In this document: positions 39,043 to 40,158 of the stretch, one piece after another
Numbering within the stretch: the first letter of the stretch is position 1
Layout of the letters: each line of letters starts with the position of its first letter
Source of the DNA: Octopus vulgaris
Lineage: Eukaryota
Assembly: GCA_951406725.2 (NCBI GenBank)
Contig: OX597831.1
Location: forward strand, 62,001-126,000
Direction: 5' to 3'
DNA: 64,000 nt
Made by a program: the position numbers and the translations under genes
The notes under the pieces: generated by a model
What the model saw: only the letters and a program-made list of their open reading frames with translations
Told to the model about the DNA's origin: nothing
Database searches by the model: none

Positions 39043-40158
39043 GTCCCGACAGAGACCAAAGAGGAGTACCGAAAAAGATCAAAGAGGTGCCGACAGAGAT
39101 CAAAGAGGTTGCCAACAGAGATCAAAGAGTGCCGAAAGAGATGAATGAGGAGTACCGAAAAAGATCAAAGAAGGTCCCGACAGAGCTCAAAGAGGGTGCC
39201 GACAGAGATCAAAGAGGGTGCCGACATAGATCAAAGAGGGTGTCGAAAGAGATTAAATAAGGGCCGACAGAGATCAAAGAGGTGCCGAAATAGATCAAAG
39301 AGGGGCCGACATAGATCAAAGACGGTGCCGACAGAGATCAAAGAGGAGTACCGAAAAAGATCAAATAGTGTACCGACAGAGATCAAAGAGGATGCCGACA
39401 GAGATCAAATAGGGTGCCGAAAGAGATCAAAGAGGAATGCCGAAAGAGATGAAAAAGGAGTGCCGAAAGAGATCTAAGAGGTTGCCGAAAGAGATCAAAT
39501 AGGGTGCCGACAGAGATCAAAGAGGTTGCCGACAGAGACCAAAGAGGAGTACCGAAAAAGATCAATGGGTTGCCGACATAGATCAAAGAGTGTTCCGAAA
39601 GAGATGAAAGAGGAGTACCGAAAAGATCAAAGAAGGTGCCGACAGATATCAAAGAGAGTGCCGACAGAGATCAAAGAGGGTGCCGAAAGAGATCAAAGAA
39701 GGGCCGACAGGGATCAAAGAGGAGTACCGAAAAATATCAAAGAAGTTGCCGACATAGATCAAAGAGTGTGCCGACAGAGATCAAAGAGGAGTGCCGAAAA
39801 AGATCAAAGATGATGTCGGCATAGATGAAAGAGGAGTACCGAAGGAGATCTTTTTCGGTACTCCTCTTTGGTCTCTGTCGGCAACCCCTTTGATGTCTGT
39901 CGACACCCTCTTTGATCTCTTTCGATCAGAGATCAAAGAGGCTGCCGAAAGAGATCAAAGAGGGTGTCGAAGGAGATTAAAGAGGGTGCCGACAGAGATC
40001 AAAGAGGAGTACCGAAAGAGATTAAAGAGGGTGTCGACAGTGACCGAAGAGGAGTACCGACAAAGATCAAAGCGTGTGCCGACAGAGATGAAAGAGGAGT
40101 ACCGAAAGAGATCAAAGCGGGTGTCGAAAGAGATCAAAGAGGGTGCCGACAGAGATAA
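39043..40158 (+). repeat. ~21-23-bp minisatellite (G/A)CCGA(C/A)AGAGATCAAAGAGG(GT/AGT) with an internal inversion at 39847-39927
   Basis: About 50 diverged units (length/period estimate); conserved CCGA and AGATCAAAG. Confidence 0.94.

Follow-up and report, generated by a model that had tools for sequence, protein, structure and literature searches.

HMG-Helper elements have been described for Drosophila TCF/Pangolin, worm POP-1 and human TCF1E (PMC4154663, PMC3916239, PMC4267635). They are defined by an 11-bp HMG site and a 7-bp helper placed in four geometries; AK0-6 are enriched in fly TCF-bound DNA, and human TCF1E prefers AK2-9 (PMC4154663). Methylation of the helper is reported to lower binding (PMC4267635). 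The octopus satellite described here shares with these elements the HMG core, the helper, the akimbo spacing and the semi-optimal KK0 junction. Unlike them, the octopus pairs are candidate elements that stand by the thousands in tandem, in a dispersed satellite.

Human Satellite 3 (HSat3) is a megabase array derived from a pentamer. It resembles the octopus sequences in being a satellite with many factor motifs, TEAD-type sites included, and its binding is shown (PMC11526998), whereas the octopus sites are predicted from sequence. The octopus repeats further differ in that each monomer type spells one site, that a two-domain site is kept together with its spacing, and that the arrays are scattered (0.6 to >8 kb). 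A parallel for the latter feature is given by the euchromatic Rsp-like and 1.688 satellites of Drosophila, small blocks of which spread, insert beside other satellites, show microhomology-type junctions and turn over rapidly on a local scale (PMC7403614). Unlike in octopus, repeat circles are shown in Drosophila, and the abstract of that paper reports no filter on factor sites. In Caenorhabditis, a rolling-circle transposon brings many sites of one signalling factor to new places in the form of Helitron-borne heat-shock elements (outlined in PMC6927752), whereas only one octopus subfamily is Helitron-borne, and its binding and any rewiring of genes by it are putative. Finally, ecDNA retention elements are factor-bound DNA that helps circles to persist through mitosis (PMC12727538); unlike the octopus satellites they are CpG-rich promoters in human cancer cells, and the analogy is drawn only for one proposed step.

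The window analysed here is a stretch of 64,000 nucleotides from Octopus vulgaris (assembly GCA_951406725.2, contig OX597831.1, below C18, positions 62,001 to 126,000, forward strand). The reading that we put forward for the array it contains, and to which we give about an even chance, is that of a mobile, dispersed 22-bp satellite with a unit pairing a TCF HMG site and a C-clamp helper, in which predicted TCF binding favours intact units during turnover and spread. That satellites bind transcription factors and that repeats spread by break repair is already known. A literature search, mostly outside subscription journals, returned no paper on this satellite family or on any TCF-site satellite; within the same scope, a satellite whose whole unit reads as a two-domain TCF site, in a mosaic of other single-site monomers, would appear to be new.

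The array in the window and its surroundings

The first 40 kb of the window are satellite, and satellite is also seen from the contig start up to the window (C18:1-62000, 2 kb at 30001-32000 excepted); the array is thus the last module of a satellite mosaic of at least 102 kb at the contig tip. The preliminary description had placed it at a satellite edge facing unique sequence: it does end the mosaic, but the adjoining 40165-40280 belong to a dispersed LINE fragment. The features are the following.

1 to 38446, no strand assigned: rest of the mosaic, with 13-mer, 20-mer, 21-mer and 8-mer satellites, continuing leftward to the contig start
38445 to 39032, no strand assigned: companion satellites, a 10-mer in both orientations and a 13-mer at 38623-38756
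39028 to 39040, plus strand: left junction between the 10-mer satellite and the remains of the 9-mer satellite
39037 to 39846, plus strand: array block 1, 36 full units of 22/23 bp (HMG site, 4-5-bp spacer, helper site)
39847 to 39924, minus strand: inverted block of 78 bp, about 3.5 units, 95% complementary to 39486-39563
39925 to 40162, plus strand: array block 2, 10 full 22/23-bp units, terminating at the junction with the LINE fragment
40165 to 40280, minus strand: dispersed repeat, an old LINE-like reverse-transcriptase fragment cut mid-element by the array
40300 to 40500 (limits approximate), plus strand: SINE-like repeat, a diverged copy of a common repeat, recognised by eye

As a tandem repeat, the array extends from 39037 to 40156 with a period of 22 and 50.9 copies, i.e., about 50 units of 22-23 bp, and includes the inverted block at 39847-39924, which had been overlooked. 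Within 39030-40165, AGATCAAAG occurs 26 times on the plus strand and once on the minus strand, and it is absent from the remaining window; RCCGA is found in the same interval 39 times on the plus and three times on the minus strand. Among the 46 full plus-strand units, the HMG core CTTTGWWS is kept in 27, RCCG in 38 and a worm-type GCCRAnW helper in 28. Both halves are intact in 20/46, which gives about 20 intact akimbo pairs in 1.1 kb, so that the roughly 50 bipartite elements announced earlier are present as units and are reduced to about 20 as intact pairs. The fly helper GCCGCCR is matched by the array only with one mismatch, GCCGCC is found 0 times, and so is the optimal site AGATCAAAGG; there is consequently no TOPflash-type perfect site, and the array, earlier described as TOPflash-like, is not TOPflash-optimal. 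Better conservation of ATCAAAG and CCG than of the linker had also been proposed, and is confirmed: the bases retained in the 46 full plus-strand units are 301/322 and 132/138, respectively, against 156/184 in the linker (Fisher p=2.7e-4, on units that are not independent), and 13/13 insertions are located in the linker.

The array comprises 47 unit types among 50 units, and its share of intact pairs is the second-lowest of 35 arrays; it is one worn, diverged copy, among the most degenerate of the family. Its left 11-nt junction recurs at three other loci (L021, L033 and L043, in six places), from which it follows that satellite mosaics move as composites. A direct donor for the window copy was sought and rejected, the longest exact match to the 34 other arrays being 65 nt, no more than with shuffled unit order.

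On the right side, the repeat at 40165-40280 has 285 candidates in the genome, 40 of which were scored; its homologs encode reverse-transcriptase-like peptides and extend beyond the point at which the array cuts it. Two inverted repeats of 102 nt, 6 nt apart (40838-41047), form a small fold-back or MITE-like structure 0.7 kb right of the array. Genes were searched for among ORFs of at least 75 aa over the next 104 kb, with 10 chosen ORFs compared to Pfam, a procedure that small exons escape. The closest gene-like ORF among those listed is a zinc-finger fragment near C18:170 kb, about 68 kb from the array (small exons would be missed). Another ORF near C18:199 kb, about 97 kb off (L088:2785-3480, minus strand, 232 codons, apparently intronless) carries PND and HhH domains, on the basis of which it is putatively named FAAP24-like.

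These surroundings bear on the earlier proposal that the window copy is a selected Wnt-responsive enhancer of a neighbouring gene. Two akimbo pairs suffice in the fly reporters described in PMC4154663, and the array offers 20 intact ones in 1.1 kb. However, it is one of at least 50 copies and ranks next to last of 35 in intact share, a satellite and a LINE fragment are its flanks, and the nearest listed gene-like ORFs are the zinc-finger fragment at about 68 kb and the FAAP24-like one at about 97 kb, with the same reservation for small exons. We regard such a local enhancer as highly improbable and do not retain the proposal.

Match of the unit to a bipartite TCF site

The consensus unit of the family resolves into an 11-bp HMG site, four bases and a 7-bp helper, with no leftover base; its two sites are arranged as in the AK6 probe of PMC4154663 (same order, same strand) and stand 4 bp apart. 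By the geometries of the same source, the 23-bp unit variant corresponds to AK5 and the unit-to-unit junction to KK0, which is semi-optimal (PMC4154663). Of 5,220 units, 3,660 are intact, and their spacer measures 4 bp in 2,607 cases and 5 bp in 912, counts that come from an earlier profile (also used for the C17>T rate and the sliding mask below) the alignment pattern of which favoured part of the unit. The resulting AK4/AK5 geometry falls within both AK0-6 and AK2-9. The consensus helper is one base off the fly GCCGCCR and matches exactly the worm GCCRAnW, as defined in PMC3916239; nowhere does the unit vary more than at the n of the latter, and the commonest helper 7-mers fit GCCRAnW. At both of its outer positions, the consensus unit deviates from the optimal 11-bp HMG site.

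When the unit is shuffled, an HMG core with a fly helper (at most one mismatch) in a favoured geometry is obtained in 73/300,000 cases; the same criterion gives 36/300,000 with the worm helper and 389/300,000 with RCCG alone. Since the motif was chosen after the unit had been seen, this test by itself is not decisive. As for the CpG of the unit, in the first 35 arrays its changes are only marginally more frequent than other transitions, but C18>T is common in seven further arrays.

A candidate TCF gene is present in the genome (C6:42.73-42.77 Mb), with HMG exons (L071), located with the PF00505 profile, and C-clamp exons (L079, L080). The assignment of both sets of exons to TCF relies on motifs that we take to be diagnostic; searches with a degenerate C-clamp pattern and with PF08347 returned no TCF match. 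One array (L024, C6:42.41 Mb) lies about 0.35 Mb from this gene, probably by chance.

Overall, the unit spells a two-part TCF site with predicted binding. The reading as HMG site plus helper, already made in the preliminary description, holds up, and with the akimbo geometry, the exact GCCRAnW, the conservation in the window and a candidate TCF gene with C-clamp exons it is stronger than could be known then.

Copies, junctions and turnover of a dispersed family

A search of the 2.8-Gb genome with 458 bases gave at least 412 matches, from the 39 scored of 158 candidates, and an exact 40-mer of the family occurs 476 times in the genome, versus 0 for a control. At least 50 arrays were recognised on at least 14 contigs: 35 including that of the window, seven further ones, and eight in a Helitron-like element. 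They are scattered as insertions of 0.6 to >8 kb, with flanks mostly unrelated between loci, so that tandem units are found at many unlinked places, and another short satellite adjoins 15/35 of them. At L015, the only junction examined with both insertion sides visible, a 3.9-kb array interrupts a SINE; about five bases are missing at the site, and the target is not duplicated. Other arrays interrupt SINE, LINE or Helitron copies mid-element, some of the joins having short shared bases.

Turnover within arrays is apparent at L017, L032 and L044, where a flank of 1.29 kb is shared at 97% and the units number 111, 138 and 232, respectively. The alignment of these units is no better than that of shuffled order (8 shuffles each); near-identical flanks thus coexist with scrambled unit order, and units must turn over far faster than flanks mutate.

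The same three loci, together with L106-L114 (C8, C6), belong to a Helitron-like composite element that is non-autonomous and in which the TCF-site array has a five-base spacer. Its flanks are matched over their full length at 16 places, 12 of which are on C8, and the array sits at an identical junction in 11/12 composites retrieved. Concerning the features of Helitrons (5' TC after A; 3' hairpin with CTAG), the 5' end is present in 8/11 arrays shown and a Helitron-type 3' end in L017, L032 and L106. Transduction by this composite is a second route of spread, besides the presumed capture at breaks. Around the window array no Helitron ends were found, and the array terminates inside the LINE fragment.

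The composite is also the main argument for deriving the unit from the enhancer of a mobile element, shaped while boosting that element, for which the heat-shock elements in worm Helitrons set a precedent (as presented in PMC6927752). Yet only three of the first 35 arrays fall in the Helitron subfamily, which has a spacer variant peculiar to it and gives the impression of having been captured late, and the other arrays lack shared ends or a coding partner within 10-kb stretches; we consider this origin very unlikely.

Several other explanations were considered and rejected. Simple rolling-circle copying of a short multimer does not agree with 38 blocks in which no strong higher-order period is seen. 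An origin as subterminal repeats of a cut-and-paste transposon was discarded given that no common ends were found among 35 arrays, nor a target-site duplication at L015, nor common ends in the opposite-facing pair on C17 (L027, L028). Contamination by a reporter plasmid or an assembly artefact is countered by the divergence of the arrays, by their interruption of host repeats at many places, and by the occurrence of family words in runs of several studies. At a share of at least 0.3, these words are found in sequencing runs under three organism labels; no RNA run is among the runs listed with family words.

Some individual loci deserve mention. At L019 (3638-6266) the flanks of the two array sides are mutually reverse complementary, forming a fold-back centred on the array. 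The distant array pairs L022/L023 and L118/L121 have a common upstream junction, a sign of further routes of duplication or transduction. Degenerate, interstitial TTAGGG tracts are fused to the 22-bp array at L021:943-2182, L030:2656-3153 and L040:2981-4719.

Variation among units

The variant test was carried out on 5,347 units from 35 arrays, in a profile with equal weights; units at array ends were dropped, as were those in which gaps or insertions exceeded 6. Each of 66 substitutions was classed as site-sparing or site-breaking, and only like base changes were compared. Sparing changes are more frequent than breaking ones in 83/94 pairs of the same base change, a figure reached by 0/20,000 permutations (p<1e-4), under a union site mask built after the profile had been seen; with single published helper definitions the values are 86/102, 75/92 and 73/87 (p 5e-5 to 1e-3). 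In these counts common variants represent few historical events, and the arrays are related by descent.

The bias depends on the class of variants. Private one-step variants show no significant bias (55/94, p=0.16, 221 events), whereas variants that reach 5% in a locus do (68.5/94, p=0.002), as do those seen once or twice per locus (72.5/94, p=0.0006, shared variants included). The absence of a significant bias among private variants indicates that site-sparing appears with spread. The seven further arrays, obtained by a different search, gave a weaker replication (66/94, p=0.016); in these, only 510/1,032 units are intact, with C17>T as the most frequent change and C18>T in third place. In the 5,220-unit profile, with its partly favoured pattern, the helper-breaking C17>T is common as well (6.5%, and at least 5% in 20/35 arrays). 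At position 3, G>T, which breaks the site, reaches 2.9%, as against 1.0% for G>C, which the site allows. When the site mask is slid round the unit, in the same 5,220-unit profile, the true register ranks only 4th and 6th of 44. The site-sparing filter is real in these data but leaky. Since most of the variation that has spread from copy to copy leaves the site intact, protein binding likely aids the multiplication of the repeat.

Some of these results also fit a coincidence, or the site of another protein, the conserved blocks being due to descent and mutation pattern. The motif was picked post hoc among hundreds of possible ones, the register control is not significant, and replication out of sample is weak. 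On the other hand, both halves belong to one protein, in its published geometry, the variant test controls for the type of base change, and the neighbouring satellites spell what we take to be factor sites too. We judge a coincidence decidedly unlikely.

A different possibility is that the host keeps the mosaics as binding platforms, a part played for TEAD by human Satellite 3. TCF and other factors would be concentrated or titrated there, or the mosaics would nucleate heterochromatin or a centromere. TEAD is among the factors bound by HSat3 (PMC11526998), site-sparing variation fits host selection equally well, the mosaic that the window copy closes measures at least 102 kb and is located at the tip of a contig, and family words in runs under several organism labels point weakly in the same direction. 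Against a host function, many arrays are short and have inserted between flanks that differ from locus to locus, or into SINE, LINE and Helitron copies, some have many broken helpers, and selection on single units among thousands would presumably be weak. Such platforms are in our opinion unlikely.

Possible mechanism of spread

If binding by TCF favours intact units during turnover and spread, octopus TCF would bind the unit through both of its domains, and bound units would be copied or kept more often during turnover, either as open chromatin serving as repair donor or in retained repeat circles. New arrays would be captured at DNA breaks, possibly from circles, the retention of which is suggested by analogy with the ecDNA elements of PMC12727538. 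The TOPflash-like look would then be the outcome of selection among repeat units. Effects on genes would be a by-product, set by the landing place of each copy, and it is improbable that the window copy serves specifically to switch a neighbouring gene.

A role of binding in spread would explain why some satellites succeed, and would mean that a two-domain site can be optimised within repeats, down to its spacing, even if the host gains nothing from it. The octopus lineage is known for rewired regulation, and thousands of predicted TCF sites could titrate Wnt signalling or add enhancers. Moreover, the variant frequencies constitute a testable prediction of the specificity of octopus TCF.

Companion satellites

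We take the monomers that accompany the TCF-site unit to be related to sites of TEAD, CP2/Grainyhead, MEF2, POU, NRF1, ATF4, forkhead and Rel. In the window, the 10-mer is presumably CP2/Grainyhead-like and the 13-mer at 38623-38756 ATF4/CARE-like; in the rest of the mosaic (1..38446) we assume the 13-mer and the 20-mer to be MEF2-like, the 21-mer POU-octamer-like and the 8-mer forkhead-like. A broader and tentative proposal, which we hold to be possible though doubtful, is that of a natural SELEX in the octopus germ line: monomers would be selected unit by unit for factor binding, since a bound repeat would have a better chance of being copied, kept or inserted anew. The arrays, each devoted to one factor (TCF with its helper; TEAD-, CP2-, MEF2-, POU- and NRF1-like), would make up a mobile library that drops ready-made signal-responsive elements across chromosomes.

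Some further observations concern the organisation of these satellites. The 13-mer satellite changes strand at about 7690 of the window, and a kilobase-scale module of 21-mer, 13-mer and 10-mer is repeated several times at 17766-36349. A telomere at the contig tip was considered and rejected, as no TTAGGG dimer was found in 58 kb of C18:1-62000, a scope that excludes 30001-32000 and sequence past the contig start. At the beginning of the contig (C18:1-9206, L046) there is another 22-bp satellite, which alternates with SINE fragments in tandem and in which a near-invariant palindrome (97-100% at each position) is set between variable flanks; the palindrome is presumably an NRF1-like core, overlapped by what we take to be an E2F-like word. 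At L035 (741-3516 and 7401-9934) a 26-bp satellite, which we assume to contain a Onecut-like word, lies on both sides of the array in inverted orientation, and at L045 (6324-9421) the array is adjoined by a 59-bp satellite with what we take to be a TEAD-like word.
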